From assembly GCA_012401045.1 (NCBI GenBank), contig GCA_012401045.1_4704.1: a stretch of 64,000 nt of DNA. One strand, 5' to 3'. Source of the stretch: a phage. This document shows positions 18,471 to 49,032 of this stretch, piece after piece; the first letter of the stretch is position 1; each line of letters starts with the position of its first letter. The translations under genes and the position numbers were made by a program. The notes beneath the pieces were generated by a model. It did not search any database and was not told where the DNA came from. It worked only from the letters and a program-made list of their open reading frames with translations.

Positions 18471-21161
<2,691 letters not shown>

Positions 21162-21874: not shown

Positions 21875-22133
21875 TTACGCCAGGCGGTACCACAATACCG
21901 GTACGAATCACAGCAGCAACTTCCTGCATGCCCTTACCCTTCAACGCATAGGTTTCATGTACCACATTACGTCGAGTCGTTAATCCAACAAATTTACATA
22001 CAACCATGTTGTTTTCTGAAAGATAAGCGGTGTCGAGTTCACCGTGCAACAATTCTTTTTCTTTGGTATCAATACCTAATAACGCAATTTGATAAGCAGA
22101 AAGTTTCCAATAACGCATAATCGTCCTATTCAT
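21825..22133 (-). CDS. hypothetical protein
   Basis: 102-aa ORF overlapping neighbours at both ends; start uncertain. Confidence 0.35.
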   Translation of the reverse strand: MNRTIMRYWKLSAYQIALLGIDTKEKELLHGELDTAYLSENNMVVCKFVGLTTRRNVVHETYALKGKGMQEVAAVIRTGIVVPPGVSDNLDEVLHGTRKTAR

Positions 22134-29525: not shown

Positions 29526-30545
29526 TTACACCGCCACCTTAGCCTTGATAGCGGGGTGTGATTGATATCCGACGAACACAAAGTCTTCGTAACGGTAATC
29601 CGTAATACTTTCCGGTTTACGTACAATTGTTAGCTTCGGTAATGGGTACGGCTCACGGCTGAGCTGCTCTTTAACCTGTTCGAAGTGGTTGTGATAGATG
29701 TGGCAATCTCCACCCGTCCACACGAACTCACCAACGTCCATATTCAGCTGTTGGGCAAGCATATGTGTTAACAACGAATATGAGGCGATGTTGAACGGTT
29801 TCCCAAGCACCGTGTCGCACGATCTCTGGTAAAGCTGACAGGATAAAGCACGTGTTGGTACGTTATGTGCATTCAACCAAAGTTCCGTTTCACTGTGTCG
29901 TACATCATCCGTAACCCACTGGGTTCTTAATACGTCGTTGCGTTGAACATAATCAACACGTTCATCGATCGTGAGCTCGTGGGTATAGAACTGATAGAAA
30001 CTGTGGCATGGGGCGAGGTGCATATCGTCTAAATCGCCTACGTTCCACGCGCTAACGATGATTCGTCGAGAATCAGGATCTTCTTTAAGCTGACGCATCA
30101 CGTTTGCAATCTGATCGTGATGTCTAACATACACGAGGTGTTTTAGCATACCGTCATTAAGAATGCCGCAATACTCATAGCCGCGTTGCATCAACTCACG
30201 AGTACGTTCTGTATCGTGCGGAACAACCACTTTGTAGTCAATCCATTCCCGCCACTGCCTACCGTAAATCGGTCCTAGATTCCCTTCTTCGTCAGCCCAT
30301 TCATTCCAGATACGAACACCGTTATCTTGAAGATAAGCAACGTTTGTGTCGCCGTTAAGAAACCAGAGCAGTTCGTGGATAACGCTCTTAAGGTGAATCT
30401 TCTTGGTGGTTACCAGCGGGAATCCTTTCTTCAAGTCAAAACGCATTTGACGTCCGAATACCGAACGGGTACCGGTACCTGTACGATCGGCTTTATCGCG
30501 ACCGTTATCCATGATGTCTTGCAAAAGGTCCAAATACTGTCTCAT
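29526..30545 (-). CDS. thyA: thymidylate synthase (ThyA family) with two internal insertions
   Basis: Track ORF trimmed to ATG at 30545 with AAGGA RBS. Near co-linear with E. coli ThyA ([28 protein letters not shown], catalytic [21 protein letters not shown]), interrupted by insertions of about 35 and 45 aa. Confidence 0.85.
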
Positions 30546-30546
30546 G

Positions 30547-30786
30547 TTAATCCTTGTTTCGTTTTGTTGACAAGATCTTATATAAGCGTTCAGCTTGTTC
30601 GAGCATATAAACCGCACGCTTGGATGCGCTCAATACAGCACAGTAACCACGTAATACGAACAGTGCGTGGTCAATCTGTAAACCACGCACCTTTGGATCT
30701 GACGACAATTCCAATGAAGTACCATCAGAAATCCATAACTCGATACTCTCTTTTTGTTCTTTCGTTAATGCTTGTTTCATAATCAC
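30547..30786 (-). CDS. hypothetical small protein
   Basis: 79-aa ORF immediately upstream of thyA in the same orientation. Confidence 0.45.
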
Positions 30787-30849
30787 CTCGTGGTAAAAGT
30801 AAATAGAGTTTTGTCGAGACGCCCTAATTACTTACAACGTCGGTTATCC

Positions 30850-31731
30850 TCAATAACAGTTATAATGGGTTCCAAGCCGCTCCGGTTTTCTCAGAAGACT
30901 ATCTTTAAGCGGTACGACGTCGATATCAACGTTTTCTGAATAATAACCATTAGAACTACCATACCAACGAATAACAACACATCCTTTTGCTGTACGAATA
31001 TGGTAAAACGTCCATCGCGTACGTTTGCAAAAGTCGTCATCCTCGTCTCTTTCCTCGGTTCTTTCTTCAGCGCTAAGTATCTTCTCACCAATAATGTCGT
31101 TAAGATCGCCATCGATGTCTTCAAGGTACACTTTTTCACAGCAATCTTGCTTATGGCAGAATTCAACAACGTTCCCATCGCCCCGATAGAAAAGAAGGGC
31201 AATACTGTATTGTAGCTGTTCGGCCGTTAAGTCTGTGGCGCAATACAAACTTTGATCTTCGGTTATCACCAAGACATTGTTGATTACGTGTCCGGCAAGC
31301 GCTCCGATCTTATTTACCGTGATAATCGGACGAACCGGTTCAGGTTGAACGATAGGGATACGAACACAGCCAATTAAAGCCATCCGTCCTTTCTTTGGTC
31401 TAACCGCAAGGTAAGGTGATTTTCTTGGGTGGTTATGTAGTCGTATTTCTACCTCGTTGAATTTAATCCCGTATATACCCAAAAACCGATCGAACAGTTT
31501 ATGAAATTCCTCGGTTGCCTCTTGCAGTGTGATGTTATTTACCGTGAGTTTATGTCCCCTGAACACCCGGGTTAAATCGATAACATCCAGTGTTTTGAAA
31601 TATATTTCCGTAAGGGGATGATCGGTGTTTTCCAGGTAAGTAATTGTTCTTTGAACCACGATTTTAGGTTGTGCACCTTTAAAACGTTTCAGGTATTTAA
31701 CACGATAACGGGTATGATCTGATGTTAACAT
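30850..31731 (-). CDS. hypothetical protein
   Basis: Track ORF trimmed to ATG at 31731 with GGAGAGGAG RBS, removing overlap with the upstream terminator hairpin. Confidence 0.5.
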   Translation of the reverse strand: MLTSDHTRYRVKYLKRFKGAQPKIVVQRTITYLENTDHPLTEIYFKTLDVIDLTRVFRGHKLTVNNITLQEATEEFHKLFDRFLGIYGIKFNEVEIRLHNHPRKSPYLAVRPKKGRMALIGCVRIPIVQPEPVRPIITVNKIGALAGHVINNVLVITEDQSLYCATDLTAEQLQYSIALLFYRGDGNVVEFCHKQDCCEKVYLEDIDGDLNDIIGEKILSAEERTEERDEDDDFCKRTRWTFYHIRTAKGCVVIRWYGSSNGYYSENVDIDVVPLKDSLLRKPERLGTHYNCY

Positions 31732-31789
31732 TTTAATCTCCTCTCCCGACTTCAGAGAATTCTTAAAATCCGTTAGTTTTGATAGACAG

Positions 31790-31827
31790 GATAAGACGGC
31801 ATAAAAGCCTCCCGTAATGGGAGGCTT
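31790..31827 (-). terminator. intrinsic terminator
   Basis: 9-bp stem AAGCCTCCC/GGGAGGCTT at 31805-31827 followed on the minus strand by UUUUAUGCC. Confidence 0.6.
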
Positions 31828-31838
31828 CATTAATCAGC

Positions 31839-33808: not shown

Positions 33809-35038
33809 TCACTTCAGAAGCTTAGACGCCGCCATGCTTCGCGCCTTCGCAACGTCATACGCATCCATGATTGCGTCACCGATAGCGGTATGACGGATCA
33901 ACGGAATACCCATATCTGGATACTCTTTGGTACCTAAGATGGATACCGGTTTGTCTTGATATGCGGCAATCATCGAACGGATATCCTGAACCTGGTTATA
34001 ACGACAAACTGGCTTAAAGCCTGCTTTACGGAACCAATGCTCTAATTGAGGCCAATCTGTTTCACCGCGAGCAAGATAATAGAAGGCATCCTTACCGTAA
34101 TATTCGGTCATTTCATCACGGATATTGTTAACAAACGCATTCACTGTGGTAATGGCTTCTTTATAGTCCATCACTCCGTCATGCTGAAAACAATAGTCGC
34201 GCGCTTCCTTCGGTGCTTTGGTTTGCCACCATTCTACCGTGGACTTACTAATATCACCACCATCAGCGATTTGACCATAAACGTCAGGGAAGATATCTAT
34301 ACGTGGGCCGTTAATAACAGATTCTGGATTAGCTAGATCAAAGAACAAGATGCCGATTTCCAGCAGTACCCCGTTCTTTTCCAGACTGAGATTCTCCACA
34401 TCCAGGCAAAACGCAGGTTTCTCTACCGCTGAAAAATCAAAATATCCTTCGAAACGTGGCGTTGGTTCAGCAGCGAGAAACGTCTCATGGACGAACTGAG
34501 AGAATGTCTTATTCTCTGCTACTAAGTCAATGCCCAATTTACTTAGCAGTGGTATAAGCGCACGGTCGTTCTGCTCGATTATCACCAACTCTTGGTTTTT
34601 GATATAACGACCAATTGAGTAAAAAAGATGAACGATATCTAACGGTTTATACGGAGCCCCAAATGTTGTTCCCTGGAACGACTGAGCTAGCGCCTTATGC
34701 GTTTCTTCGCGATGATTCATCAGTTGGATAATAGCGCAGCGCAGATAATGCCGTAATGTTATCTCGTGAAGATGCGACGTATCTTCCTGAAATAACGTCA
34801 TGAAACCGTGATACGTATAATACTCTCCTCTTTTAATTTCTTCGAGGAGTTCTTTGTCCCCATTTATTTCCTCTGGTGTTATCGGTTCGATTTGATCGTG
34901 GATAATGTTGAGCAGGTCACTGCCGTGTACCTTAAACAGTTTTTCAACGTCAAGATTAGGTAAAGTCGCAATCGCCGCGTACATTAATGTTTCTGCGGGA
35001 TTAAGTTCTTTATTGTCAATTGTGATGGTTAAAGCCAT
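33809..35038 (-). CDS. protein with C-terminal DnaQ-like (DEDDh) 3'-5' exonuclease domain
   Basis: Track ORF trimmed to ATG at 35038 with GAGGT RBS. C-terminal half has FCLDVENLS (Exo I D-x-E) and HTAIGDAIMDAYD (Exo III H-x4-D) in the expected order. Confidence 0.45.
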   Translation of the reverse strand: MALTITIDNKELNPAETLMYAAIATLPNLDVEKLFKVHGSDLLNIIHDQIEPITPEEINGDKELLEEIKRGEYYTYHGFMTLFQEDTSHLHEITLRHYLRCAIIQLMNHREETHKALAQSFQGTTFGAPYKPLDIVHLFYSIGRYIKNQELVIIEQNDRALIPLLSKLGIDLVAENKTFSQFVHETFLAAEPTPRFEGYFDFSAVEKPAFCLDVENLSLEKNGVLLEIGILFFDLANPESVINGPRIDIFPDVYGQIADGGDISKSTVEWWQTKAPKEARDYCFQHDGVMDYKEAITTVNAFVNNIRDEMTEYYGKDAFYYLARGETDWPQLEHWFRKAGFKPVCRYNQVQDIRSMIAAYQDKPVSILGTKEYPDMGIPLIRHTAIGDAIMDAYDVAKARSMAASKLLK

Positions 35039-35082
35039 TTTGTTATACCTCATCGAAATCAAATTAGTTCAGTTCTGGTTTA

Positions 35083-35418
35083 TCATTCCGGTCTATCAGC
35101 AGCCAGACCAAGTCCAGTCAGCATCACGTAGTCGTACCAAGCTTTTACTTTTGCTTTCGCCTCATCTAAACTATCTGCGTTGATGTGCGAAAACTCATCG
35201 TTGACTGGGAAAGGTAAATCGCAGTCGTAGCTTGTATAGTCTTTCCAACCTTTCCATTCGATAGTTAGAGAACCAAAAACGGTCTCAGCAACAACGTGGT
35301 TATAGCGACATTCTTCACATGGCGAGCGCTCTTCCGACCAAACAAGCTCATGCTGCGCTAAAAGTTGTTGTACGACCGATAACGGTTGCTCTTCATTAAG
35401 TTCGATGCTGTCTATCAT
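35083..35418 (-). CDS. hypothetical protein
   Basis: 111-aa ORF coupled to the upstream gene. Confidence 0.45.
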   Translation of the reverse strand: MIDSIELNEEQPLSVVQQLLAQHELVWSEERSPCEECRYNHVVAETVFGSLTIEWKGWKDYTSYDCDLPFPVNDEFSHINADSLDEAKAKVKAWYDYVMLTGLGLAADRPE

Positions 35419-36011
35419 CGTATACCCTCCTTTTCCTTATCGTAATCGCTGCAAATATTGACAAACGCAGTATTATCAGACAGCGTGGCGACCATCTGAC
35501 GGATTGCGTCCAACGGTTCAAGTTTAGGATTGATTGATTCACCGGTCAACGCGCTTATTGCTCGTGTGATCTCAACCAAATCAACGTTCGGGTCGTTATC
35601 ATCGATGACGAGCAGACTCTTCGCTGGTTTCTGACGACGTTTGATGATCAACAAATACGTGATGAGATTCTCACGCCATGCGTCAGAATCCAGATTGCGT
35701 ATCAGGGTTAACGCACGACGTTCTTCCGCCCACGATGGTTTCTCACGGATAACAGGCATGTAAGATAACTGCTCAGCAAGTCCTTTCAAACTGACACGGT
35801 TGGTACCACCAGGATGCTCACTAATCCGCAACATCTCGGTTAACAGACGGACATAGGCGGCTGTTGTCGAAACACCCCTCAACGGCAGGAACACATTATG
35901 TCCTGGGACACCATCGTGACTCAGCGGTGCGATATACGCCATGAATCGCCGAATATCATCATCGGTCTGTTCCCCAGCAACGAACTTAAACGCTTCACGT
36001 AAAACGCTCAC
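35415..36011 (-). CDS. hypothetical protein
   Basis: 198-aa ORF; no motif recognised. Confidence 0.45.
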   Translation of the reverse strand: MSVLREAFKFVAGEQTDDDIRRFMAYIAPLSHDGVPGHNVFLPLRGVSTTAAYVRLLTEMLRISEHPGGTNRVSLKGLAEQLSYMPVIREKPSWAEERRALTLIRNLDSDAWRENLITYLLIIKRRQKPAKSLLVIDDNDPNVDLVEITRAISALTGESINPKLEPLDAIRQMVATLSDNTAFVNICSDYDKEKEGIR

Positions 36012-36297
36012 TATGAAGTCTCCTTAATGTTTCTTGCATACGTAGTCTCTTCGGCAGAAATAGACGTTTGTATAGATCAATTAACAGATAACGCATAACA
36101 GAAGCGACCACCAGGTATTCACCTTCAGCTTCCGAATAACGTATCATGTTAATTGGGTAATTCAAATAAGAATAAGAAAAGAGATCATCGTTGGTAAGGT
36201 GATGATCTTCAAGATACTGACGAAACAATTTTGCTAAGGCATCGTACTCCATTCCGTAGTAACACAACGACACCTGTCTTGCAGATAGTCGTTTCAT
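35995..36297 (-). CDS. hypothetical protein
   Basis: 100-aa ORF coupled to neighbours. Confidence 0.4.
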   Translation of the reverse strand: MKRLSARQVSLCYYGMEYDALAKLFRQYLEDHHLTNDDLFSYSYLNYPINMIRYSEAEGEYLVVASVMRYLLIDLYKRLFLPKRLRMQETLRRLHSERFT

Positions 36298-37136
36298 GCT
36301 GGGTTACCTTTTAGTTTTCCACGTATCATGTCGACAACGCGTGAGGGATCAGAAATAACATTGGCGATAAGATGATCGATAGGTAGGTCGAGAATGATAT
36401 TCTTCAGCTGGAAAGCCGTATCTTTACGACGCACGCCGTAGAACACGCCATCTTTAAACACAACCTCGTACGAGATGGGGAGCTGGCTAATAACCGTGTT
36501 AGCGTAATCACCCAACCACATCGACCCCGCCATCAGATGCGCACAAACCGCATGACTAATACGCACATCTTTGTTCTTCCGGTTAACGTCTTTGGTTTTC
36601 GACATGGTAACCAGAAGCTCACCGATCTTACTCAGCATATCGTCGTATACCCCAAAGAACTTAATCAGTTGTCGGGCACCTAACGATATATATGTTTCTC
36701 GTGGTAAGACACAACACACCTGCGGTAACGTTCCAACCCCATAGACACAACTGTGTGGTGATAATGGAAGCAAATCAGCAACCGCGTTCTTGATGTTGTT
36801 ATACTCAACGATATCGTTGAACGGTGAAAGACCTTTCGTAATCGGTTTATCAATCGCCACATCGAACTCCGCGAACGTCCATGCTGATTTACGTGGTTCC
36901 CCTTTCTGGTACGGTGGAGCCAGTACCGCGACAACACGAAGTCGATGTTCATGGGTATCACGTAGCTTAAGTTGGATACCCTCACCGTCACCCTCACGCA
37001 CAAGTGAGTAGCGGCTTGCGCAGTCATCACATACCACCGTTGGTTCGTGTTGACCGTATGCTGCAAGCATCGGTTTACTAAGATCTTTATCACAGTGTTT
37101 ACAGCGATGATCCTGTTCCTGATAACTAATTTTCAC
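36294..37136 (-). CDS. hypothetical protein with N-terminal zinc-ribbon-like Cys pairs
   Basis: CKHC ... CDDC near the N-terminus. Confidence 0.45.
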   Translation of the reverse strand: MKISYQEQDHRCKHCDKDLSKPMLAAYGQHEPTVVCDDCASRYSLVREGDGEGIQLKLRDTHEHRLRVVAVLAPPYQKGEPRKSAWTFAEFDVAIDKPITKGLSPFNDIVEYNNIKNAVADLLPLSPHSCVYGVGTLPQVCCVLPRETYISLGARQLIKFFGVYDDMLSKIGELLVTMSKTKDVNRKNKDVRISHAVCAHLMAGSMWLGDYANTVISQLPISYEVVFKDGVFYGVRRKDTAFQLKNIILDLPIDHLIANVISDPSRVVDMIRGKLKGNPA

Positions 37137-37151
37137 ACCGAGACCCCTTTG

Positions 37152-38108
37152 TTAATGCAAGACACGATCTGCTGGAATTATCGTGGCATTGCTGTCGGAC
37201 AGATTCGTCGCTTTACGATCAGGACTGAATCGACGAGCGTTCTCTTCATGGTAGTTGACGGGGTTATCCTGTTTTAACAGTTCCATTGCCTCATCAAACG
37301 TTAGTTCCCGAAATCCTCTTGGGTAGAGGAACAAGGGTTCATCAACATCCAGCCCTTTAACAAACCCGTGCGACAACCAGACGCTACCATCAGCACTGTA
37401 AAGAACCGGCTCAACATCATAATCCAAGACGTATTGATACCAATAATTAAACAGTTGAGCAATCCACCGATTACGTAATAAGTAATCGATCATAACCGCA
37501 CTACGCACGCTGTGACACCAGCCGATCTTACCATCAACTTTCTGCAACAACGTACCCTCATTTGCTTGATGGATAACCGCATTAAATAACCACGCAAGAT
37601 CGGTTGCGAAAAGTGCTGCTTCTTGAATATCGCTAACGTAACGCACGGGTATCGTCAGATGCGTGCGGTAATGCGACATCGCCTCTTCGTAGTTGTCTCC
37701 TTCGATGCAGAGAGTCCCGTTTGGTGACAGATGTCCCTGATTCAACGACTGACCGATATAAAGATCAGCGATCGCGTTAATATGTTCGACGGTACCCAAG
37801 GTTAACTCAGACATAAAACAATCGACATCAACAGCCATCGATGTACTGGAAACAAACGGATTGGCTGGGCGAGTTGTATTAGAGAAAATAATCGACCAAA
37901 TCGCTTCGTGTTTTTCATCCGATGGCAAAAACGAAATATGGCGTTCTGCGCTATTATCGACAACAAATACCTTTACGGTTTTCAAACAGCTAGTACAAAC
38001 ATAGCACGTGTTCGGCAACGGCATATCCGAAAACATATCGTAACGAATCGATGCCAGCGAAATGTCATGTCCGCAATGAGGGCATGTCGTATCAATAAGC
38101 GTTTTCAT
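37152..38108 (-). CDS. hypothetical protein with N-terminal zinc-ribbon-like Cys pairs
   Basis: CPHC ... CYVCTSC near the N-terminus. Confidence 0.45.
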   Translation of the reverse strand: MKTLIDTTCPHCGHDISLASIRYDMFSDMPLPNTCYVCTSCLKTVKVFVVDNSAERHISFLPSDEKHEAIWSIIFSNTTRPANPFVSSTSMAVDVDCFMSELTLGTVEHINAIADLYIGQSLNQGHLSPNGTLCIEGDNYEEAMSHYRTHLTIPVRYVSDIQEAALFATDLAWLFNAVIHQANEGTLLQKVDGKIGWCHSVRSAVMIDYLLRNRWIAQLFNYWYQYVLDYDVEPVLYSADGSVWLSHGFVKGLDVDEPLFLYPRGFRELTFDEAMELLKQDNPVNYHEENARRFSPDRKATNLSDSNATIIPADRVLH

Positions 38109-38338
38109 TATTGAATTCCTTTTGATAAGAATAACTGAATATCGGTAAACTGTTCTTCAGGAACATCGTCAGCAGCCGTTAGAACCTTAGGGCCGTGTTC
38201 ATTGAGGTAAGCTTCCCGTAGACGATGATGACGTCGATTGGCTTCCTGGAACTCGGTGTCCGTCATGTAAACCAGCGTAAACTTCGAACGTTTATTCGGA
38301 TTATATCTCTTATTACGTTTCTTTGGTTTCTTCGCCAT
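38108..38338 (-). CDS. small basic protein
   Basis: Track ORF trimmed to ATG at 38338 (MAKKPKKRNKRYNPNKR) with GAGG RBS; a perfect 12-bp hairpin lies just upstream. Confidence 0.4.
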   Translation of the reverse strand: MAKKPKKRNKRYNPNKRSKFTLVYMTDTEFQEANRRHHRLREAYLNEHGPKVLTAADDVPEEQFTDIQLFLSKGIQ

Positions 38339-38349
38339 AATAGCCTCGT

Positions 38350-38378
38350 GAAGGTGGATGGGTGTACCATCCACCTTC
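38350..38378 (-). promoter_or_regulatory. perfect 12-bp stem-loop in intergenic region
   Basis: GAAGGTGGATGG-gtgta-CCATCCACCTTC; no U-tract; immediately upstream of the RBS of 38108..38338. Confidence 0.45.
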
Positions 38379-38385
38379 CTCTATG

Positions 38386-38907
38386 TTAAAGTGCGTTCAA
38401 TTCTTCAGGTGTACGTACAGTACGCGTGTTAGGATCAACCATTGCTGGCACACCCGCTGGACATTTACGGACATCGATCCGCATTTCCGGCTCGATCGGA
38501 CGAACACGATACGTTTTACCGTCGTCGGTTAACACCGAAATGGTCAACGCTTGATTCAACTCACTAACGAAGTTCACCAAACGCTGTTGTCCGCCCTTCG
38601 ACCAGAAGTTAAGATCGGTTTCTCCATTGAAATAACTGATTCCATCAGCGGTTCCAATCGTGATTTTAACGATACCCGGATAGTCACGAAGAAGAGGTGC
38701 CTGATAACCTTCATCTTCCGTATCCAGTTTTACCCACGCGCCTCCCGTAGACAAGCAGTTAACTTCCAGGGCGGTTGGTGCACTGACTTCTGCTGATGAC
38801 CAGGTATACATCGTGCCTAGTTTAGCGTGTCCGGTTTCCAGTTCGCTATAATCCCAAGCATGTGCTGATGCCGTAATAAAGAAAGCCGCAAGAAATAACT
38901 TTTTCAT
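38386..38907 (-). CDS. secreted hypothetical protein
   Basis: Signal peptide MKKLFLAAFFITASAHA. Confidence 0.5.
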   Translation of the reverse strand: MKKLFLAAFFITASAHAWDYSELETGHAKLGTMYTWSSAEVSAPTALEVNCLSTGGAWVKLDTEDEGYQAPLLRDYPGIVKITIGTADGISYFNGETDLNFWSKGGQQRLVNFVSELNQALTISVLTDDGKTYRVRPIEPEMRIDVRKCPAGVPAMVDPNTRTVRTPEELNAL

Positions 38908-38961
38908 TCTTTCGATTCCTATTAAAAGTGACCGATTTCTGTGGTCGAGATTGCTAATAAA

Positions 38962-39423
38962 TTAATTCCGGTTTTGTTTCCGTATTGCACGGTTACGTTT
39001 ACGTTCTTGGTCTTTGACTGCACCAAGAAACTTCTTTAATTCTGATGGTTCGAGTGTACCCTCACGTACCACACCGTTTTGTTCGATATGGTACGACCAA
39101 TAACCAACTTCAGCCGTTAAGGATAACGTTGTCGGTTGCTCATCAGGTAACGATCGGGGTGAAAAAATAAAGAGTAATTCAAAAGGCGTTTCTCGGCTGA
39201 TGGTGGGACGGATACTCACATCGAGTCCCTCCCATCGCTGAGGTTTAAATATTCCTCCGGCGGCGATGATTGTCTCCGAGCGCTGGTCTACAAGCTCAGC
39301 TAATTCACGATCATCATTGAAATAAATATCGTGAAGGATATCCGTATCGATAAAAAACCCGCGATCCGAATCGTGACGAACAATGGAATTCTTCATTCTA
39401 ACGCCTTTATTGTTTGTTTTCAT
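38962..39423 (-). CDS. hypothetical protein
   Basis: 153-aa ORF; no motif recognised. Confidence 0.45.
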   Translation of the reverse strand: MKTNNKGVRMKNSIVRHDSDRGFFIDTDILHDIYFNDDRELAELVDQRSETIIAAGGIFKPQRWEGLDVSIRPTISRETPFELLFIFSPRSLPDEQPTTLSLTAEVGYWSYHIEQNGVVREGTLEPSELKKFLGAVKDQERKRNRAIRKQNRN

Positions 39424-39470
39424 GTCCTATACGAACATGAAAAACCGTTAATTTTTACCGTAGTCGCGTG

Positions 39471-39746
39471 TTAAAAATCCACCCCGCGACCCGTCATCGA
39501 CGAAGGAACCGCGCGATAATAGAAGTAGATGTAATGGTCGCGATGGCTAAAACAGTTTTTGCAAGCATAGAACTCTCCAGATCCAATGAATGATTTAATA
39601 CGTGTAACTTGAGGGTGTCGTGCGAGTAACGCCCGTAGGACGATTTCCATTTGGTGTGCGCTCAAACCGGGTCGAGCTGCGACATGATAATGAAGCTCCG
39701 TAAGAAATCGTTTCCAGGGATCAGTTTGTGTCGATGATCGAGACAT
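39471..39746 (-). CDS. hypothetical protein
   Basis: 91-aa ORF; no motif recognised. Confidence 0.4.
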   Translation of the reverse strand: MSRSSTQTDPWKRFLTELHYHVAARPGLSAHQMEIVLRALLARHPQVTRIKSFIGSGEFYACKNCFSHRDHYIYFYYRAVPSSMTGRGVDF

Positions 39747-39812
39747 CTTTATCTCCTTAACAGGTGCTGGTAACGCAGCATAAACCCTCCCCGAAGGGAG
39801 GGCGATTAACGA

Positions 39813-40370
39813 TTACTCCATCCATACTTCTTCGTCGTAATGATTTTCTATCGCATTACGCCAAAAACGCACGGTGTCCAAACTAATCGGTGCATAAAAA
39901 TGCTGATCAACGCCGACATTAAGTCCGTTGGCCTTCGCTAACATACAGCGATGAATATGACCGAATAAATTAAAGTAGCCTGGGTTTCTTTCGCTGGGCT
40001 TATGGCAGAGCCAGTAGGATTCGTCATTGCTAATCGGTAGCACCAACGGATGTTCATAAACCGCAGCAAACCCCATACCGAGCAGTTTATCACGCCAAGC
40101 TTCGAAGCTTAACCCTGTTGCTCTGCATGCGTCTTCGTCCCAATTCCCCAATACCAATTGAACCTGGATATCAGAACGAATGGCTTCCACGAACTCGAAC
40201 TTACCCCAATCACCTAAATGCCATAACACACTGTTCTTTGGAAGCTTATTGATGGCTTTCAGCATATGCTGGTTCATATCGGCGACGCTTGCGAACGGAC
40301 GGCGTGAATACGTCCATGTACGCTCGCTATCAAAATGGGTATCCGATATAAAGAAGATGGGTGAGGTCAT
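39813..40370 (-). CDS. calcineurin-like metallophosphatase
   Basis: Ordered metallophosphoesterase motifs SDTHF (D-x-H), GDW (GD), GNWD (GN-D) and GHIH. Confidence 0.65.
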   Translation of the reverse strand: MTSPIFFISDTHFDSERTWTYSRRPFASVADMNQHMLKAINKLPKNSVLWHLGDWGKFEFVEAIRSDIQVQLVLGNWDEDACRATGLSFEAWRDKLLGMGFAAVYEHPLVLPISNDESYWLCHKPSERNPGYFNLFGHIHRCMLAKANGLNVGVDQHFYAPISLDTVRFWRNAIENHYDEEVWME

Positions 40371-40849
40371 TGATCTAATTGCTCCAGAAACGCACGACCC
40401 GATTTACTTGCTTTTAAATGCTGTTCTGCGGAAGTAAGCAGAAGATCGGTTGGTGTGAACGCAGCGCTACCTTTCCATGCTGTTTTCAGTTTACCCTTTT
40501 CGATACTGAACTGAATCAGTTGTTGGGTACCGAAGTTAAGCGTGTTCGTCGCGGCGCTAAATACACCACCCATCATGCTGTAACCAAAGACTTTCACATT
40601 TTCCGTGTAGAAGTCATTGTCGATCAGTTTGTTCTGGAGCTCGAGTTGGTCGGACGGCAGCAATCCCCCATCAAAGACACTTAAAATACCAGCCAGGCGA
40701 TACATACTCACCTTTCCTGAAACGCCCACAACGTAATTGCCGTACAGGGTTTCTTCCAGTTTAGCAACAACGGTGCGATCGTCGGAGGTTTTCATCGAAA
40801 CCTCAATACCATCACCAATTTCTGTTAACGTTAAATCAACGATACTCAT
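40367..40849 (-). CDS. hypothetical protein
   Basis: 160-aa ORF coupled to the metallophosphatase gene. Confidence 0.45.
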   Translation of the reverse strand: MSIVDLTLTEIGDGIEVSMKTSDDRTVVAKLEETLYGNYVVGVSGKVSMYRLAGILSVFDGGLLPSDQLELQNKLIDNDFYTENVKVFGYSMMGGVFSAATNTLNFGTQQLIQFSIEKGKLKTAWKGSAAFTPTDLLLTSAEQHLKASKSGRAFLEQLDQ

Positions 40850-40871
40850 TCATTATTCTCCGCTTTCATGT

Positions 40872-41558
40872 TTAACACATGATTTCACCATGTTTCTTTT
40901 CGACATACGTATAAACATCATCCAAATAAGCAATGAGTTTATCACGATCCGCACAAAGCGATTTAATCGCCGCAATCTCTTTCATATAAAGCTGCTGACC
41001 TAACGCTGGATACGTAATCCAAGCGTAGCCGTCAGGCGCAAATTTAGAAATAAGATAATCGGCGGTTTCCTGTAATGCGAACTCTTTGCTCATCTGACCG
41101 TAACGATGTTCGATTGCGCGGATACCAAAACGTTCGCTATCAAGACGACCCATATCCGCCAGACGAAGCACCTGAGAAGCAACCGAGCTGCGTGGACCAG
41201 AGTACGAGGCACGATGTTCAGCAATAAGTACACGTATCTCTTCGATGTCTTCCGGTGTGAAAATATGCTGCTCGTTACGAAGCAGAATAACCGACGCACG
41301 AATACCCCCGATAAGGTGGTGGTAGGTTCTGTTTTCATGGCAAGCGATATCATGCATAAAAGCAGCTGTTAATAGACGGCGGCGTTCGGTAGGTCTAATA
41401 ATCCCAACCACATCAGCAAGTTCATTTGCCAGTTCAACAACAGCAAGCACATGTTCTTCTTGATGTGCAAGATCGTTCTTCCGAATATTTTCAATTACTT
41501 CAGCGCGTGTTTCCTGAGATAAGAAATTTAAACAATCCAACGAATATAAAGATTTCAT
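40872..41558 (-). CDS. HD-domain phosphohydrolase-like protein
   Basis: H ... HD arrangement (HQEEHVLAV ... AAFMHDIACHE) typical of HD-domain metal sites; conserved 20-nt motif ~45 nt upstream. Confidence 0.45.
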   Translation of the reverse strand: MKSLYSLDCLNFLSQETRAEVIENIRKNDLAHQEEHVLAVVELANELADVVGIIRPTERRRLLTAAFMHDIACHENRTYHHLIGGIRASVILLRNEQHIFTPEDIEEIRVLIAEHRASYSGPRSSVASQVLRLADMGRLDSERFGIRAIEHRYGQMSKEFALQETADYLISKFAPDGYAWITYPALGQQLYMKEIAAIKSLCADRDKLIAYLDDVYTYVEKKHGEIMC

Positions 41559-41603
41559 CGCACGTACCTCTTTGAATCTATTAATAAATTTTCTTTACTC
41601 ACG

Positions 41604-41623
41604 TAAGTAATATAGCCGTGAAA
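41604..41623 (-). promoter_or_regulatory. conserved upstream motif copy 2 (candidate phage promoter)
   Basis: Identical 20-mer ~45 nt upstream of the start codon at 41558. Confidence 0.4.
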
Positions 41624-41702
41624 GGATTTGTGTTGGCCCGTTTCGATGCCCATCGTATTTTATGGATTGTCGAATGACGTCATTTTAAGGGACATCCCCG
41701 GC

Positions 41703-41737
41703 CTCCTCCCCAGGAAAGGTGTGGGGAGGAGTTTTTA
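41703..41737 (+). terminator. terminator-like hairpin plus T-tract in divergent intergenic region
   Basis: Stem CTCCTCCCC/GGGGAGGAG followed by TTTTTA on the plus strand, directly upstream of the SNF2 helicase gene. Confidence 0.45.
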
Positions 41738-41766
41738 TCATACATTCTATTAAATCGAGCGCGATT

Positions 41767-43848
41767 ATGTTGGATAGAATCAATCGTCTAATGAACCGAA
41801 TAACGGTTAAAAATCAGAGTAACAATACCGTGCATATCGGGGGTATCGATGCCTGGCGTCTTTCAGATGACATTCAGCGAATATGGGGTACCTCCCGATT
41901 TACGAAACATATGTTTCGTAATTTCTCTTCTAGTGGACTCAGCCTCCACAACTTTTACCTCCCCGATTTCGTTTATATTCTCGAGACGATCATCGAAGCA
42001 AAGAATACCCGCAGTAACAAACGCATGCTGAAACACCTTATTGAGGTACTGCTACAGGAAACCTGGTTGCAAAATACCACAATCGAGCAACCTGCAATCC
42101 TCGATAAAGCACGCATGAACAAAATGCTAACGCTCTCTTTGTTCGATTATCAAGATGAGTTTATCGACATCTATAACCGTAACGTACCTAAATATCGACT
42201 GAAAGGATACGTGTGCGCGATGGGTGCCGGTGCGGGTAAAACGATCACCGCGTTGGCATTAAGCGCCGCAATGAACGTCGATGTATTTGTGGTCTGCTGT
42301 CCTAAGAACACGATGCGTTCAGCATGGCAATCCGATGTAAACAAAGCCATCGTTGACCCTGCAACAGAAACCGCGTTCTGGTCAGATACGATGCCACCAT
42401 CACAGCTGCAGAAAAGCGATAAGTACTATTTTCTGCATTACGAATCGATGGGTTTATTAAACGATGTAATGATCAAGCATAAACGCACCGCGAAGCGCGT
42501 GTTGATCGTGGTTGACGAAAGCCATAACTTCAACGACAAGAACAGCCAACGTTCCCAACGACTGGTTGATCTCGTACAGACGATGCGTCAGACCATGAAT
42601 GCGGATGTGCATGTCTTGTTTATGTCAGGTACGCCCGTTAAACAGATGGGTTCTGAGATGATCCCATGTTTAGGTTGTATCGACCCGATGTTCCAAGGAC
42701 AGGTGGTTGATAGCTTCAAAGCAATTTACGGTTTAACCAGCAGTCGCGCTAACGATATCCTCAGACATCGTCTTGGGTTCATGATGCATGTCGTACCTAA
42801 AGAAGCTTATCGTAAAACCCGGCCGGAAGTTCAGGATGTTTACGTGAAGCTCCCTAACGGTAGCGATTATACCATCTCAAGTATCCGCGACGACATGGCG
42901 ATATTTGTACGCGATCGGGCGAAGTATTACAAGGATAACTGGGGGCATTACAGAAAGATTTTTGATGACGCCTTGGACTACTATCGTAAGACTATTCGTA
43001 CCGACGGAGAACGTAAAGAGCTATCTCGATACGAATCGATTGTTGCTCGTTTCCAGAAAGGTTACGATCCCGTCAGAGACAAAGAAGATGCGATGTTCTG
43101 CAACACGTTTGAAAAACGTTCCATCATGCCGGTTCTTCCTTCTGATTTAAGAGTTGCTTTCAAAGACGCTAAGAGTGTCATCAAGTACGTTGGGTTGAAA
43201 ATTCAGGGTGAAGCGTTGGCACGTGTTCTAGGTGCAGCCCGCATTCAGTGTCATGTCGACATGGTGGAGTACATCGACTTCGAAGGGTACATCAACAACG
43301 CTGAAGCCAAAGTGTTGATCTTCACGTCGTACGTTCAGGTGGTTGAGCGCGTCGACAACCTGCTTCGCGATGCGGGTTTCTTACCTGAACCCATTTACGG
43401 GAAGACCAACAAAAACATCAACCAGATACTTGCTCGCTTACGGGACGATCCTGACAGCGGTCCCGCTATCGCAACATTTGATAGTTTAGCTGAAGGGGTT
43501 CCAATGTTGATGTGTAACGTGGGTCTCTTCTTGAACAATCCGTGGCGCTCATCCGATGAAATCCAGGCCATCAGCCGTCTCGACCGTGTAGGGCAAACAC
43601 AACCCGTTCGGATTTATCGTTTCATGTTAGATACAGGAAGCGAGGGTAACGTTTCTACACGCAGCCACGAAATCATGGAGTTAAGCCGACAGCTTGTTGA
43701 AGAAATCACGGGTGTCAAATACGTGGTGAACAAGCAAGACGATGTTAACTTGCAAGAAACGCTGGCGATGGAAGGATACGATCAATACGTTACCGTAAAC
43801 ACCACGGAATACGATATTAAACCACGACCTGCGTTCTTGGAATGGTGA
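41767..43848 (+). CDS. SNF2-family (SF2) helicase/ATPase
   Basis: Walker A GAGAGKT, Walker B/motif II VVDESHN, motif VI QAISRLDRVGQ. Track start 41719 is a GTG inside a hairpin; ATG at 41767 preferred, but its RBS is weak. Confidence 0.7.
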   Translation: MLDRINRLMNRITVKNQSNNTVHIGGIDAWRLSDDIQRIWGTSRFTKHMFRNFSSSGLSLHNFYLPDFVYILETIIEAKNTRSNKRMLKHLIEVLLQETWLQNTTIEQPAILDKARMNKMLTLSLFDYQDEFIDIYNRNVPKYRLKGYVCAMGAGAGKTITALALSAAMNVDVFVVCCPKNTMRSAWQSDVNKAIVDPATETAFWSDTMPPSQLQKSDKYYFLHYESMGLLNDVMIKHKRTAKRVLIVVDESHNFNDKNSQRSQRLVDLVQTMRQTMNADVHVLFMSGTPVKQMGSEMIPCLGCIDPMFQGQVVDSFKAIYGLTSSRANDILRHRLGFMMHVVPKEAYRKTRPEVQDVYVKLPNGSDYTISSIRDDMAIFVRDRAKYYKDNWGHYRKIFDDALDYYRKTIRTDGERKELSRYESIVARFQKGYDPVRDKEDAMFCNTFEKRSIMPVLPSDLRVAFKDAKSVIKYVGLKIQGEALARVLGAARIQCHVDMVEYIDFEGYINNAEAKVLIFTSYVQVVERVDNLLRDAGFLPEPIYGKTNKNINQILARLRDDPDSGPAIATFDSLAEGVPMLMCNVGLFLNNPWRSSDEIQAISRLDRVGQTQPVRIYRFMLDTGSEGNVSTRSHEIMELSRQLVEEITGVKYVVNKQDDVNLQETLAMEGYDQYVTVNTTEYDIKPRPAFLEW

Positions 43849-43947: not shown

Positions 43948-45402
43948 ATGAAACTTAAACAAAGCTGGAAAGACGAACTTCTCGCGTTAGTAAACAGCAA
44001 AAACAGTTTACAACTGACATTAGACGATGTAAAATTTGAACTAACGGCACCGGTAAGCGAAGTGCCTGGAACGGTCGTTGTTACAATCAAACCGAACGAT
44101 AATAGTCGCTACTTTAACGAGCAGTCTCTGACCTACATCCGTCGAGACATCGCTAAAAACTTCACTGGGATCCCGTTACGGGTCATCGTTAAAAAAGATA
44201 CCGCTGTAAGGGATATCATCAATACGATTGCTGAACGTTACGGATTGGTATTTGACACAGCCGTCGACTTCCTCGAATCCGAGCTGAATAAACAAATTAC
44301 GTTCGCAGACACCGGTATTAAAGACATTACGGTTCCGGTTGCAAACACGTCTTATGTTTGGGCGGGTAATCTTCAGTTCAATATTGCTAACGATACGTTA
44401 AGCTTGATTACTATCATCAAGAAAACCGATCTTACGAATCTGGTTTATCTGGATGGTGTTGAAGCTGACACATCTGGTTCGTTACTATTAGCAACCGCAG
44501 CACTTGTTAACGAACACGTAAATGAACCGATGGTTGAAAACGAAGATATCGTTAATGAATTTATTAACGTTCTTAATACTCTAGCCAAATATGGTGACAT
44601 AACCGGCGATGAATTAGATGCCGCCTTACAAGCGTACGATGAAGCAGAAAACAGGAATAAAACCACGGTAATAACTCTTGGTGATATCCAGTGTGTTGCA
44701 ACAGAAAAAGACGATTGGGAAATTGGACGTTTACGCGGTCAGATGGTTCTCGCGCTCAAATCCGATAAATACCCGGAGCCCGATAACACGTTCAGGTTGT
44801 TTACGAATGGTGGTGACGTATCGCTAACGTTAAACACAATGAAAGATATAAGTATCGATTGGGGTGATGGGAATAAAGTAACGTTGGATGCTGAAGAAAG
44901 ATACGCGCACCACACATACGCCGACAATAACCAGTACCAAATCGAAATTGTGTCTCGTACGGACCCAGATGTGCTGCGACCAAATTATATTTCTGGGAGT
45001 GAGATAACCGAAGTAATTCACTGGGCTACTACTTCAACAATAGCTCTGAATTTTGTTGGATGCGATAATTTAGCGACTGTTCCAGATGAGATCCCAACTT
45101 CGTGGACAACGTTGGACAGCATGTTTGAAAGTTGTACGAATTTGAATGATCCGTCTATCTCTAACTGGAATACAAGTAACATCACATCAATGAATGGTAT
45201 GTTCGGCGGATGCACTAAATTTAACCAACCTTTAGCTGCCTGGGATGTCAGCTCAGTAACTGACATTGGTGGTATGTTTAACGGATGCAACAGTTTTAAC
45301 CAAGATTTAAGTGGGTGGCGATTACCGTCAGGAGTAACCCACGACAATTACGATAGTGGTGCTTTCTCGTGGCAGACGGAACATAAACCGACGTTCCAGT
45401 AA
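43948..45402 (+). CDS. DUF285/BspA-like repeat protein, paralogue of 31..1785
   Basis: N-terminus KLKQSWKDELLALVNSKN parallels STVYPEWKADLLALVNRKN; C-terminal repeats NWNTSNITSMNGMF...FNQPLAAWDVSSVTDIGGMFNGCNSFNQDLSGW. Confidence 0.65.
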   Translation: MKLKQSWKDELLALVNSKNSLQLTLDDVKFELTAPVSEVPGTVVVTIKPNDNSRYFNEQSLTYIRRDIAKNFTGIPLRVIVKKDTAVRDIINTIAERYGLVFDTAVDFLESELNKQITFADTGIKDITVPVANTSYVWAGNLQFNIANDTLSLITIIKKTDLTNLVYLDGVEADTSGSLLLATAALVNEHVNEPMVENEDIVNEFINVLNTLAKYGDITGDELDAALQAYDEAENRNKTTVITLGDIQCVATEKDDWEIGRLRGQMVLALKSDKYPEPDNTFRLFTNGGDVSLTLNTMKDISIDWGDGNKVTLDAEERYAHHTYADNNQYQIEIVSRTDPDVLRPNYISGSEITEVIHWATTSTIALNFVGCDNLATVPDEIPTSWTTLDSMFESCTNLNDPSISNWNTSNITSMNGMFGGCTKFNQPLAAWDVSSVTDIGGMFNGCNSFNQDLSGWRLPSGVTHDNYDSGAFSWQTEHKPTFQ

Positions 45403-46770: not shown

Positions 46771-49032
46771 TTACAATTCAAAATCTTCATCGATAACACG
46801 CTGGGTAAGCACTTTGTCGCTGAAGAACTCCACCTTGCGCTGATGGTATTTACGGTGCGCTTCGATAGAAGTACATACCAGATACCAGAACGTTGGCGTC
46901 ATTCCTTCAAACTTTCCTTTCAGCTGACGCAGTCGCCCCAACACCTGAATGTTACCGGTTCGTGACCCCATCGCTAATGTCATGAACGTCATCACCAAGT
47001 CAGGAAGGTCGATACCTGTACCTGCCGATTTCACCGTTGTAACGCTAATATCGTTATCCAGCAAGACCATGAAATCTTCTTCAGCGGTATAAGGACCGAT
47101 CTCTAACTCAGGGATACGTTCACTGAGATAATGCGACAACGACTTACACATATCGACGGTTGCACAATACACCAGCATCTTCATACCTTCCTGATACTGG
47201 TTCATGAAACCCTTGATAATAACGGTATAGATGAAGTTAAAATACGCGAGTTTGAGTTGCTTGTTCTTCATGATAGACTGTTCGAATATCGTGTGTGAAT
47301 AAGCTCCACCAAACCCTTTGTATCTGACTTTATCTGTACTGCGTAGTCGGTACGTTACCGCATTTACCGCAATGTATTTCTTGTATTCGCCTTTCGCATA
47401 ACGAGCTTCTTTCGGATACATCAAATACAGCATCTGTTCGATAAACGGATCATCGGATACCGCTGTTGCCGACAGATAAATGATTTCCGGAATATTGGCG
47501 TAACACTTGACCTTAAACAAGAAATGCAATGCTTCGTGACACTCGTCATGAATCAGCAAACCTATGCCGGTCTTTTCCCAAAACTCAGCGGGATGAAAGG
47601 CATATGGCGCAACGCAGTTATTCTTCTCGTAGTCCGCAATATAACGTTGGAACATGTTCAAGGAGAACAATGCGATTTTAAAGTCGAGTTCACCTTGTTC
47701 AACCAAGGTTTGAAACTCCAACATACTGTAACGAGGAATGTCGGGATGCGGTGGATCCTCCTTAGCGTTCCCGCGTATCTCGATAACGTCCCCTGGTTCC
47801 ATCCCGAAGAAGTTCAGCAGTGAGCTTCGCCAACCTGGCATATACCGTGGAGAAAGTATAATGCCTGTGCGCACACCCCGTCTGAACACGATTTCCTGCG
47901 ACATCGCGGTGTTATGCGTGACGATGTGGTCTTTAATAACATAAAGGCTTTCGTCATTGTCCACCGTGATGCAACGTGCTTTCGCTTTCACTGTCGGTAC
48001 GATGCTATCAATCGCTAAACCAGGAAGCCGGTTAACGGGGAGATCGTCTGGAACCTCAATGTCGTCAGGAATAAGCTTACGCAAATCGGAATGATAAATT
48101 AATGTCTCCATCGTGTAACTATCGATGGGGCATTTATACGCGATTCCTCCTAACTGATAAGCCAACTCCCAAACCTTGGCCGTTATCTGCGAATCGACGG
48201 TTCTGACCGCAAGGTGAGCTTGCCCGTTTCTGATTCTCAGTTCACAGCGACCTTTGATTACCGCCTTAAATTCCTCGATACCGACGAGTTCTTTCGGTTC
48301 GTAAAGTCGGATTCTTATTGGACGAGATCGAGCAGGTCTGTCGTAAAGACATTCCATGATTTCGTCCGTGCTGAGAACCTTATCGGGGTCAGTACACCGC
48401 CAGAGATGATCGCCACACGCTTCAACCATCCTACCGTCTTCAAAGAAGATAGCATGAAGCTGAATATCGTCATGATCAAATATAGCGGTTACGTTCGTCG
48501 GTAACCCATCCGCACCAACAACCTGATCCCCTACCTGAAGCTCACCAATCGGCTTCCAACCTCCTGGAACCTTCACGGGTGTGGTAAGCCGTACCGCTTT
48601 CCCTGACCCCGTTTGAGCGGTGTTTAGGCTCATTCTGAAGGGGGTATCCTTACCCCCGTCCATGTACTCCAACCATTCTTGCTGATCTTCACGCCATGGA
48701 AACTTCCATTTCTTTACGAACTCCACTTCTTTACCTGGTACCGGATCGTGATAGACGATTTCCAACCACTCTTTTCGTATCCCTCGGGAAAAGATAAAAT
48801 CCAAAAACGATTTCAACTGTTCACGGAGTAAGTATACCTCGCTATAATCGCTTCTTGCCGCGGCATACGTGTTTATGGTATCGGTAACCATTCTCCGTGT
48901 ACGAGGGTCACGCCGTTTCCTCAGATGCAAACAACGGTCTCGAAGGTAATGGCCGATAAGATGGGCAAATCGAAGTCCGTATCCGCTCAGCCTCATGCCA
49001 TGCGAGAAGACGTCGATACGAGCTAACTTCAT
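46771..49032 (-). CDS. SF2 DExH-type helicase with an intein-like insertion in the P-loop
   Basis: AQTGSGK then ~229-aa insertion then TAMSQ (reconstituting GSGKT); downstream DECH (motif II), SAT (motif III) and QVLGRLRQ (motif VI). Confidence 0.6.
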   Translation of the reverse strand: MKLARIDVFSHGMRLSGYGLRFAHLIGHYLRDRCLHLRKRRDPRTRRMVTDTINTYAAARSDYSEVYLLREQLKSFLDFIFSRGIRKEWLEIVYHDPVPGKEVEFVKKWKFPWREDQQEWLEYMDGGKDTPFRMSLNTAQTGSGKAVRLTTPVKVPGGWKPIGELQVGDQVVGADGLPTNVTAIFDHDDIQLHAIFFEDGRMVEACGDHLWRCTDPDKVLSTDEIMECLYDRPARSRPIRIRLYEPKELVGIEEFKAVIKGRCELRIRNGQAHLAVRTVDSQITAKVWELAYQLGGIAYKCPIDSYTMETLIYHSDLRKLIPDDIEVPDDLPVNRLPGLAIDSIVPTVKAKARCITVDNDESLYVIKDHIVTHNTAMSQEIVFRRGVRTGIILSPRYMPGWRSSLLNFFGMEPGDVIEIRGNAKEDPPHPDIPRYSMLEFQTLVEQGELDFKIALFSLNMFQRYIADYEKNNCVAPYAFHPAEFWEKTGIGLLIHDECHEALHFLFKVKCYANIPEIIYLSATAVSDDPFIEQMLYLMYPKEARYAKGEYKKYIAVNAVTYRLRSTDKVRYKGFGGAYSHTIFEQSIMKNKQLKLAYFNFIYTVIIKGFMNQYQEGMKMLVYCATVDMCKSLSHYLSERIPELEIGPYTAEEDFMVLLDNDISVTTVKSAGTGIDLPDLVMTFMTLAMGSRTGNIQVLGRLRQLKGKFEGMTPTFWYLVCTSIEAHRKYHQRKVEFFSDKVLTQRVIDEDFEL
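47911..48597 (-). mobile_element. putative intein (Hint domain, about 229 aa) within the helicase gene
   Basis: N-terminal AVRLTTPVKVPGGWKPIGELQVGDQVVGADG resembles Hint block A; C-terminal RCITVDNDESLYVIKDHIVTHN followed by Thr resembles blocks F/G (HN plus nucleophile). Confidence 0.5.

Follow-up and report, generated by a model that had tools for sequence, protein, structure and literature searches.

The window analysed here is a 64,000-nucleotide (nt) stretch of phage DNA (contig GCA_012401045.1_4704.1 of GenBank assembly GCA_012401045.1), and the element in question is a 229-residue intein that interrupts a helicase gene on its minus strand. The gene forms one long open reading frame (ORF) of 753 amino acids (aa), whose ATG overlaps the stop codon of the upstream RNA polymerase beta-subunit gene. 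Translated on the minus strand, the insert makes up ORF residues 146–374; it begins with AVRLTTPVKVPGGWKPIGELQVGDQVVGADG and finishes with RCITVDNDESLYVIKDHIVTHN, preceded by ...NTAQTGSGK and followed by TAMSQEIV.... When it was excised in silico, the flanks formed AQTGSGKT, the canonical Walker A motif (motif I of superfamily 2, SF2, helicases). The insertion site was thus the Lys/Thr junction of Walker A, between AAA (Lys145) and ACC (Thr375). The original prediction, made from the letters of the sequence, had placed an insertion of about 229 aa between AQTGSGK and TAMSQ, with the helicase motifs DECH, SAT, and QVLGRLRQ downstream. Its coordinates proved exact, the motifs stood where it had put them, and the strand, which it did not give, was minus.

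An empty version of the site was observed in a close relative. The window was ~95% identical in DNA to the jumbo phage Escherichia phage vB_EcoM_Goslar (genus Goslarvirus), and the synteny around the helicase gene was kept. Goslar gp164, annotated as ‘DNA helicase’, has 524 aa and matched the joined flanks in one piece with 97.7% identity. The only gap in a global DNA alignment with the gp164 gene was exactly 687 nt (229 codons) long and lay at the Lys/Thr junction. The aligner may shift this gap by one codon, and protein logic places it between the AAA and ACC codons. The empty site reads GGGTCTGGTAAA before the junction and ACAGCCATGTCGCAGGAG after it. The in-frame insertion was therefore absent from close orthologues, while the helicase family itself was present in 308 phage records, nearly all of them jumbo phages.

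The insert alone, searched with phmmer against the PDB, matched 6rix, 6bs8, and 6riy at E~1e-10 and the gp41-1 intein at E = 3e-6. HMMER, run exhaustively on 1.84 billion representative proteins, gave 8,546 relatives of the insert at E ≤ 1e-3; a word-indexed protein search with the intein returned one 129-aa fragment only. An alignment of the window intein with 20 relatives (23–36% identical), hereafter A1, was used as a profile against the PDB, and all its matches were inteins, led by gp41-1 (E = 4.5e-22) and Msm DnaBi1 (E = 4.9e-19). The AlphaFold2 model built on A1 had a predicted local distance difference test score (pLDDT) of 96.3 and a predicted template modelling score (pTM) of 0.90. 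Its top PDB matches in Foldseek were solved class 3 DnaB inteins, with target template modelling (TM) scores of 0.83–0.88, followed by the PI-SceI, Prp8, DnaE, DnaB, and RecA inteins. Foldseek gave 58 matches at E ≤ 1e-3; all of the 50 listed were Hedgehog/intein (HINT) fold domains, and 44 of them were inteins. The NCBIfam model of the intein C-terminal region, TIGR01443, also passed its cut-off on the insert.

Sequence, profile, predicted structure, and Foldseek thus agreed on a HINT fold with blocks A, B, F, and G, and the insert ended in His228-Asn229 followed by Thr+1, that is, in a C-terminal Asn with a Ser, Thr, or Cys at +1. A bacterial intein-like (BIL) or Hedgehog-type Hint domain was considered and ruled out by the best matches to true inteins, the location of the insert in a catalytic motif, and the Asn/Thr+1 junction. 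The insert is an intein, and the exact observation of the original prediction is confirmed, well past anything that chance would give. The prediction of an intein-like Hint domain in the Walker A of an SF2 helicase, starting with a block A-like segment and ending with F/G-like blocks plus Thr, held in each of these parts. Intein-free homologues fixed its boundaries, and the segment is not an integral domain of all such helicases, since gp164 and a further close relative described below (P0154, also 524 aa) lack it.

The joined, intein-free protein gave weak Pfam matches to ResIII and DEAD over the rejoined P-loop, a match to the NCBIfam XPB model at E = 4.6e-6, which is far under the cut-off of that model, and no match in a single-sequence PDB search. 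A profile of 12 intein-stripped family members matched XPB/Rad25/Ssl2 at E~2e-12 across motifs I–III. G142, G144, K145, D267, E268, H270, T294, Q467, R471, and R473 were invariant in this profile. With motifs I (GxGKT), II (DExH), III (SAT), and VI (QxxGRxxR) and the XPB homology, the host protein is classed by its sequence as an XPB/Rad25-like member of SF2 from a Goslar-like, nucleus-forming jumbo phage, with predicted helicase activity.

Class 3 inteins have a non-nucleophilic first residue, a covarying triplet of Trp B:12, Cys F:4, and Thr G:5 (WCT), a block B His, and Thr or Ser at +1 (PMC2807308, PMC5050341). They splice through two branched intermediates (PMC5222942). In class 2 inteins the WCT triplet is missing and the +1 residue used is Cys (PMC2807308). 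In the window intein, a codon-by-codon check found Ala1, His64, Trp66, Cys209, Thr227, His228, Asn229, and Thr+1 all present. His64, Trp66, Cys209, Thr227, His228, and Asn229 aligned to His65, Trp67, Cys118, Thr137, His138, and Asn139 of Msm DnaBi1, an intein with a solved structure and characterised biochemistry, and the catalytic residues were invariant or nearly so in A1. Position 1 is not Cys, Ser, or Thr, as class 1 would have it, and the triplet together with Thr+1 departs from class 2 (KlbA-type), so the residues present are those of class 3.

The same signature was observed across the family, in 209 intein copies taken from the 150 best family representatives. The block F Cys was found in 208 of the 209 copies, HxW of block B in 207, the THN terminus in 205, and Thr or Ser at +1 in 202. 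Ala was the first residue in 120 copies, and ‘GK’ stood directly before the intein in 130. The original prediction had taken the first residue, Ala, as a sign of a non-canonical or inactive intein. Ala is indeed first, but the hint of inactivity did not hold: because the full class 3 residue set is present, Ala1 is not expected to be a defect, as class 3 inteins start splicing from an internal Cys. Its remark that P-loops are a classic insertion site agrees with the literature, where the Walker A position between the invariant Lys and Thr is described as such (PMC5050341). The features of the locus are collected in Table 1.

Table 1. Coordinates of the interrupted helicase gene, its intein, and the diagnostic residues in the window.
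Feature	Position	Strand	Basis or remark
Helicase precursor ORF	46771..49032, stop codon included	−	Orthologue of Goslar gp164; phrog_16 DNA helicase E=7e-25
N-extein, residues 1–145	48598..49032	−	Ends with first part of Walker A, AQTGSGK at 48598-48618
Intein, 229 aa, class 3 type	47911..48597	−	687-nt gap vs Goslar, PDB intein matches, AlphaFold2, Foldseek
N-terminal splicing region, blocks A and B, intein residues 1–76	48370..48597	−	Sequence/profile matches
Linker from splicing region to endonuclease remnant, intein residues 77–106	48280..48369	−	Helix 77–86; common to full-length relatives
Degenerate LAGLIDADG half-domain, intein residues 107–175	48073..48279	−	MAFFT alignment, AlphaFold2 secondary structure, hhalign, Foldseek
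C-terminal splicing region, blocks F and G, intein residues 194–229	47911..48018	−	Sequence/profile matches, TIGR01443
C-extein, residues 375–753 and stop codon	46771..47910	−	Begins with Thr+1, completing Walker A
Intein-linked flank tract, first ~36 C-extein codons	47803..47908	−	Allele comparison
Ala1 codon GCG	48595-48597	−	
Cys61, B:7	48415-48417	−	
His64, B:10	48406-48408	−	
Trp66, B:12	48400-48402	−	
Cys209, F:4	47971-47973	−	
Thr227, G:5	47917-47919	−	
His228	47914-47916	−	
Asn229	47911-47913	−	
Thr+1	47908-47910	−	
DECH, ORF residues 496–499	47536-47547	−	
SAT, ORF residues 521–523	47464-47472	−	
QVLGRLRQ, ORF residues 696–703	46924-46947	−	

Full-length relatives at the same site (~350 aa; P0004, P0047, and P0153) have two LAGLIDADG motifs, LPIDPYILGVxLGDG and LLxGLxDTDG, plus a KFIP block. 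In the MAFFT alignment, the first half-domain, including its LAGLIDADG motif and the KFIP block, was wholly missing from the window intein. The AlphaFold2 model showed one alpha-beta-beta-alpha-beta-beta unit at intein residues 107–168, and in hhalign, residues 104–177 corresponded to the second of the two half-domains in the full-length relatives (97.9% probability, E = 5e-13). The start of this alignment coincides exactly with the motif, in which AVIKGRC has taken the place of GLMDTDG and both acidic residues are gone. A local hidden Markov model (HMM) of the full-length inteins gave a marginal 4.5-bit match to the middle region, and no LAGLIDADG Pfam match was found in the window intein, whereas the 352-aa intein of P0153 matched PF14528 and PF05204. 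In Foldseek, intein-endonucleases of the PI-SceI type covered more of the model (query TM 0.60–0.71) than mini-inteins did (~0.49), which fits a half-domain remnant.

The original prediction had left a choice between a mini-intein and a degenerate endonuclease; it is the second option that stands, in the form of one degenerate LAGLIDADG half-domain. An active LAGLIDADG endonuclease has two such motifs (blocks C and E), each contributing a catalytic acidic residue, together with blocks D and H; here one motif is absent with its half-domain and the other has lost its acidic residues. Because there is only one half-domain and it lacks the catalytic acidic residues, endonuclease activity of the 229-aa intein is judged very unlikely, and the intein has probably lost the ability to home on its own.

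Three states of the Lys/Thr site were seen among Goslar-like phages in public assemblies: empty, occupied by the 229-aa intein, and occupied by another intein of 352 aa. The empty state (P0154, 524 aa) was found on 16 contigs, genome-sized ones included, with exteins 99% identical. Thirteen contigs, of which two are genome-sized, carried the exact window protein, and further alleles with a 229-aa intein were P0002 (97% identity) and P0152 (94%). The third state, P0153 (L005 3001–5631, ENA ERZ16268287 scaffold_1988), is a near-identical helicase with the 352-aa intein at the same site. In this longer intein the first residue is Ser, the WCT triplet is retained, and the endonuclease is intact, with the motif ‘LAGLIDTDG’. 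The 229-aa and 352-aa inteins were ~55% identical in their splicing blocks. As near-identical helicases carry different inteins at one site, two distinct inteins appear to compete for it in one phage population.

Comparison of alleles also revealed a short tract next to the intein. Between the window gene and the closest empty allele (L008), 43 differences were found in 1,575 nt; 24 of these fell within ~108 nt of the start of the C-extein, and another two within the final 7 nt of the N-extein. Within the 36 codons of the flank tract, ~22 differences were synonymous, which amounts to saturation, and only one changed an amino acid (Thr to Val, by the three-base change ACC to GTG). Over the remainder of the gene, the synonymous divergence (dS) was 0.065. 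The intein-bearing alleles of the window, L005, and L007 had this tract in common, none of the empty alleles had it, and outside it the window gene was closest to an empty allele. Since the tract tracks with the intein, is saturated with synonymous changes, and sits in a gene otherwise nearest an empty allele, the intein and ~100 nt of flank would form a unit of foreign origin that moved between genomic backgrounds, as the allele comparison indicates. The source of both is likewise indicated to be a more distant relative of the helicase gene, and the pattern points to horizontal acquisition of the intein. The GC content of the intein (48.5%) differed from that of the exteins (46.2%) and the window (45.4%) by a gap too small to use.

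A longer C-extein tract of ~420 nt, 73–79% identical to Goslar, was considered as a co-conversion footprint and rejected, because the empty alleles L008–L011 diverge there too (81% identical to Goslar, 94% to the window). Most of the signal of this longer tract is a population mosaic patch, and only its first ~100 nt track with the intein. At window positions 47490–47910, at least three haplotypes (Goslar, L006, and window types) were seen, 78–85% mutually identical and independent of intein presence; outside these positions, the gene was 93–100% identical between alleles.

The best explanation of the locus, to which we give a probability of roughly 0.88, is a class 3 intein with a decayed endonuclease remnant in the Walker A motif of the helicase, predicted to splice by the class 3 route. 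The route was deduced from residue conservation and homologues (PMC2807308, PMC5222942, PMC6195587), and all masses are computed. The gene would be translated as an 86.9-kDa precursor, which should be inactive as an ATPase because its ATP-binding loop is split; inteins in P-loops are proposed to keep the ATPase inactive before splicing (PMC6195587). Cys209, aided by His64 and Trp66 of block B, would attack the Lys145-Ala146 peptide bond, and the N-extein would move to Cys209 as a thioester, giving the first branched intermediate. The N-extein would then be transferred to Thr+1 to form the ester-linked branched intermediate. Cyclisation of Asn229, aided by His228, would release the 25.7-kDa intein, and an O-to-N acyl shift would produce a normal Lys-Thr bond in a 61.2-kDa helicase with intact AQTGSGKT, for which the predicted junction peptide is MSLNTAQTGSGKTAMSQEIVFR. 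The intein probably no longer cuts DNA and would be maintained through vertical inheritance and through recombination of phages that infect the same cell.

Selection was assessed from the ratio of nonsynonymous to synonymous divergence (dN/dS) between the 229-aa alleles, which was 0.11–0.14 for the intein, 0.09–0.17 for its remnant half-domain, and 0.016–0.043 for the exteins of the carriers. Strong constraint on the exteins in carriers implies a functional helicase, which with 229 residues in the P-loop requires excision, so the selection pattern suggests that the intein splices. This bears on the alternative of a splicing-dead relic, a permanent domain that the helicase tolerates or that sits in a pseudogene. 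Ala1 offers no canonical nucleophile and the endonuclease has already decayed, as in such a relic, but the catalytic residues are all intact and invariant across the family, both intein and carrier exteins are under purifying selection, contrary to what a pseudogene would show, 229 aa between the Lys and Thr of the P-loop are expected to break ATP binding (cf. PMC6195587), and the helicase is conserved across the phage records mentioned above. We regard a dead relic as improbable.

Several points weigh against the proposed class 3 element and its mobile history. When the WCT triplet was grafted onto gp41-1, cleavage but almost no splicing resulted (PMC7664689); activity therefore cannot be read from the motif alone, and the triplet is no guarantee of splicing, which is also in favour of a dead relic. 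Block B position 7 is Cys61 (CxxH), where characterised inteins have Thr, Ser, or Asp, although within the family Cys occurs there more often than any other residue (88 of 207). Pfam Hint models gave sub-threshold matches only, against both the insert and the precursor, a result that is uninformative alone. For the flank tract, the intein-bearing allele L006 has a haplotype of its own, and the tract fits both endonuclease-driven homing and plain recombination, which the sequence does not separate.

An intein that is active by another route was also weighed, either with Thr+1 attacking the N-terminal junction directly, as in class 2 inteins of the KlbA kind, or with cleavage only. Ala as first residue is shared with class 2 inteins. 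These, however, combine the absence of WCT with Cys+1 (PMC2807308), whereas the full triplet and Thr+1 were found here, and the closest solved relatives are experimentally class 3 (PMC5222942, PMC6195587), which makes another route highly improbable. Hardly credible is a middle domain that still works as a homing endonuclease, for example as a homodimer like single-motif LAGLIDADG enzymes, and makes the intein self-homing. The half-domain is confidently folded in the model and under purifying selection, and the intein-linked flank shows that the element has moved. Against this stand the absent first half-domain with its motif and KFIP block, the surviving motif without either acidic residue, and the missing LAGLIDADG Pfam match that the P0153 intein does have.

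With its confidently predicted fold and the purifying selection on it, the half-domain may be more than debris. A doubtful but not negligible idea is that the half-LAGLIDADG domain and Cys61 are kept for conditional splicing, controlled by redox state or DNA binding in the phage nucleus, or that the domain allows trans mobilisation by the endonuclease of the 352-aa intein. Cys61 belongs to block B, which touches the N-terminal junction close to the catalytic Cys209, and the two residues might pair in a redox-sensitive manner. If splicing were conditional in this way, the helicase would be switched on according to redox conditions or DNA binding in the phage nucleus.

Other differences from Goslar were observed elsewhere in the window, in a comparison made outside positions 33815–42997. 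A 275-aa Dam-like, D12-class N6-adenine DNA methyltransferase (22126–22953, minus strand; PF02086, E = 1e-59) sits in a segment of ~850 nt without counterpart at the syntenic Goslar position. A 326-aa ORF with a DUF7448 domain (30850–31830, minus strand; E = 5e-24) lies in a ~890-nt segment absent at the syntenic Goslar position, and the adjoining 30450–30800 was the most divergent aligned patch (57–67% identity to Goslar). Short patches at 14100–14350, 19600–20500, and 29700–29950 were 78–85% identical to Goslar against a background median of 96%. Such patches suggest frequent mosaic recombination among Goslar-like phages. Positions 44495–45370 failed to align with their counterpart in Goslar gp161, a BspA-family leucine-rich-repeat protein. 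On the opposite strand, 1297–1615 matched the gp161 gene at 67% identity, a match suggestive of a divergent paralogue. The exact window helicase or fragments of it were also found in assemblies labelled Salmonella enterica or E. coli (L012: GCA_010679085.1, AAOILU010000032.1; P0001; P0155), so Goslar-like phage DNA is present in bacterial isolate sequencing data, through a carrier state or contamination.

The locus matters for annotation, since public records list this gene and related ones as ‘hypothetical’, ‘DNA helicase’, or ‘terminase large subunit’ and never as intein-bearing. A conserved XPB-like helicase of nucleus-forming jumbo phages would be made as an inactive precursor in many lineages. 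One population with empty, live-endonuclease, and decayed-endonuclease states and a sharply bounded, apparently foreign flank offers a compact natural system for the homing cycle and for genetic exchange between co-infecting chimalliviruses. For protein engineering, it supplies a putative enterobacterial class 3 intein that should express easily in E. coli.

Class 3 inteins, their bias to phage and helicase genes, and the Lys/Thr site of the P-loop are already well described, and the understanding of inteins is unchanged by this case. A literature search found no paper on inteins in Goslar-like phages, and no intein among the sequenced phages of the collection was more than ~30% identical to the window intein over its full length. 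The mycobacteriophage Bethlehem DnaB intein, the class 3 prototype, and the TerL1-a inteins are likewise phage-borne class 3 inteins in ATPases (PMC2807308, PMC5050341), and the TerL1-a inteins also occupy the Walker A position flanked by the invariant Lys and Thr (PMC5050341). Their hosts are other proteins of actinobacteriophages, whereas the window intein belongs to an enterobacterial jumbo phage; the first residue of the MP-Be DnaB intein is Pro and its LAGLIDADG endonuclease is complete, compared with Ala and a half-domain here. PHROG families of terminase, primase, and DnaB loader matched the window intein through inteins of their own. The gp41-1 intein (6qaz, 6riz), of cyanophage-like and also phage helicase origin, was the best profile match to the splicing domain and has the same block layout. 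Unlike the window intein, it is class 1 (Cys1), naturally split, and without an endonuclease remnant.

The same Lys/Thr site with the same class 3 signature in an orthologous helicase was found in Vibrio phage phiKT1028 (UVD32274), P0121, P0028, P0047, and P0153, and such same-site inteins made up 41 of the 150 top family representatives, none annotated as an intein. They were 25–55% identical to the window intein and 191–536 aa long, and the long ones keep both LAGLIDADG motifs. The phiKT1028 helicase (L004 1462–3588, OP123707.1, UVD32274.1) is annotated as ‘terminase large subunit’, a mis-annotation that probably arises from intein homology. Its intein of ~200 aa, with class 3 junction and block motifs, lies between AQTGQGK and T, and the closely related phages pTD1, phiKT1019, and USC-1 lack it there. 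Many top family matches carry two or more inteins. The metagenomic helicase homologue P0004 (1132 aa) has two, one in the P-loop and a second, class 3-like, at another site; its P-loop intein starts with Cys yet shows HxW in block B, the block F Cys, a THN end, and a full LAGLIDADG domain.

Also among the closest known systems are the DnaB-1 inteins of Mycobacterium smegmatis and M. chimaera (6bs8, 6rix, 6riy), which were the best matches by sequence and structure. Common to them and the window intein are Ala1, the WCT triplet, a His in block B, a His-Asn end, and the location in a helicase P-loop (PMC6195587), at a Foldseek identity of ~18–19% over the whole model. They differ in their host, a hexameric DnaB rather than an SF2 XPB-like helicase, and in having Ser+1 and a block B DxxH where Thr+1 and CxxH were found here. 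They are also mini-inteins of 139–145 aa with an unstructured linker, whereas a folded endonuclease half-domain is retained in the window intein.

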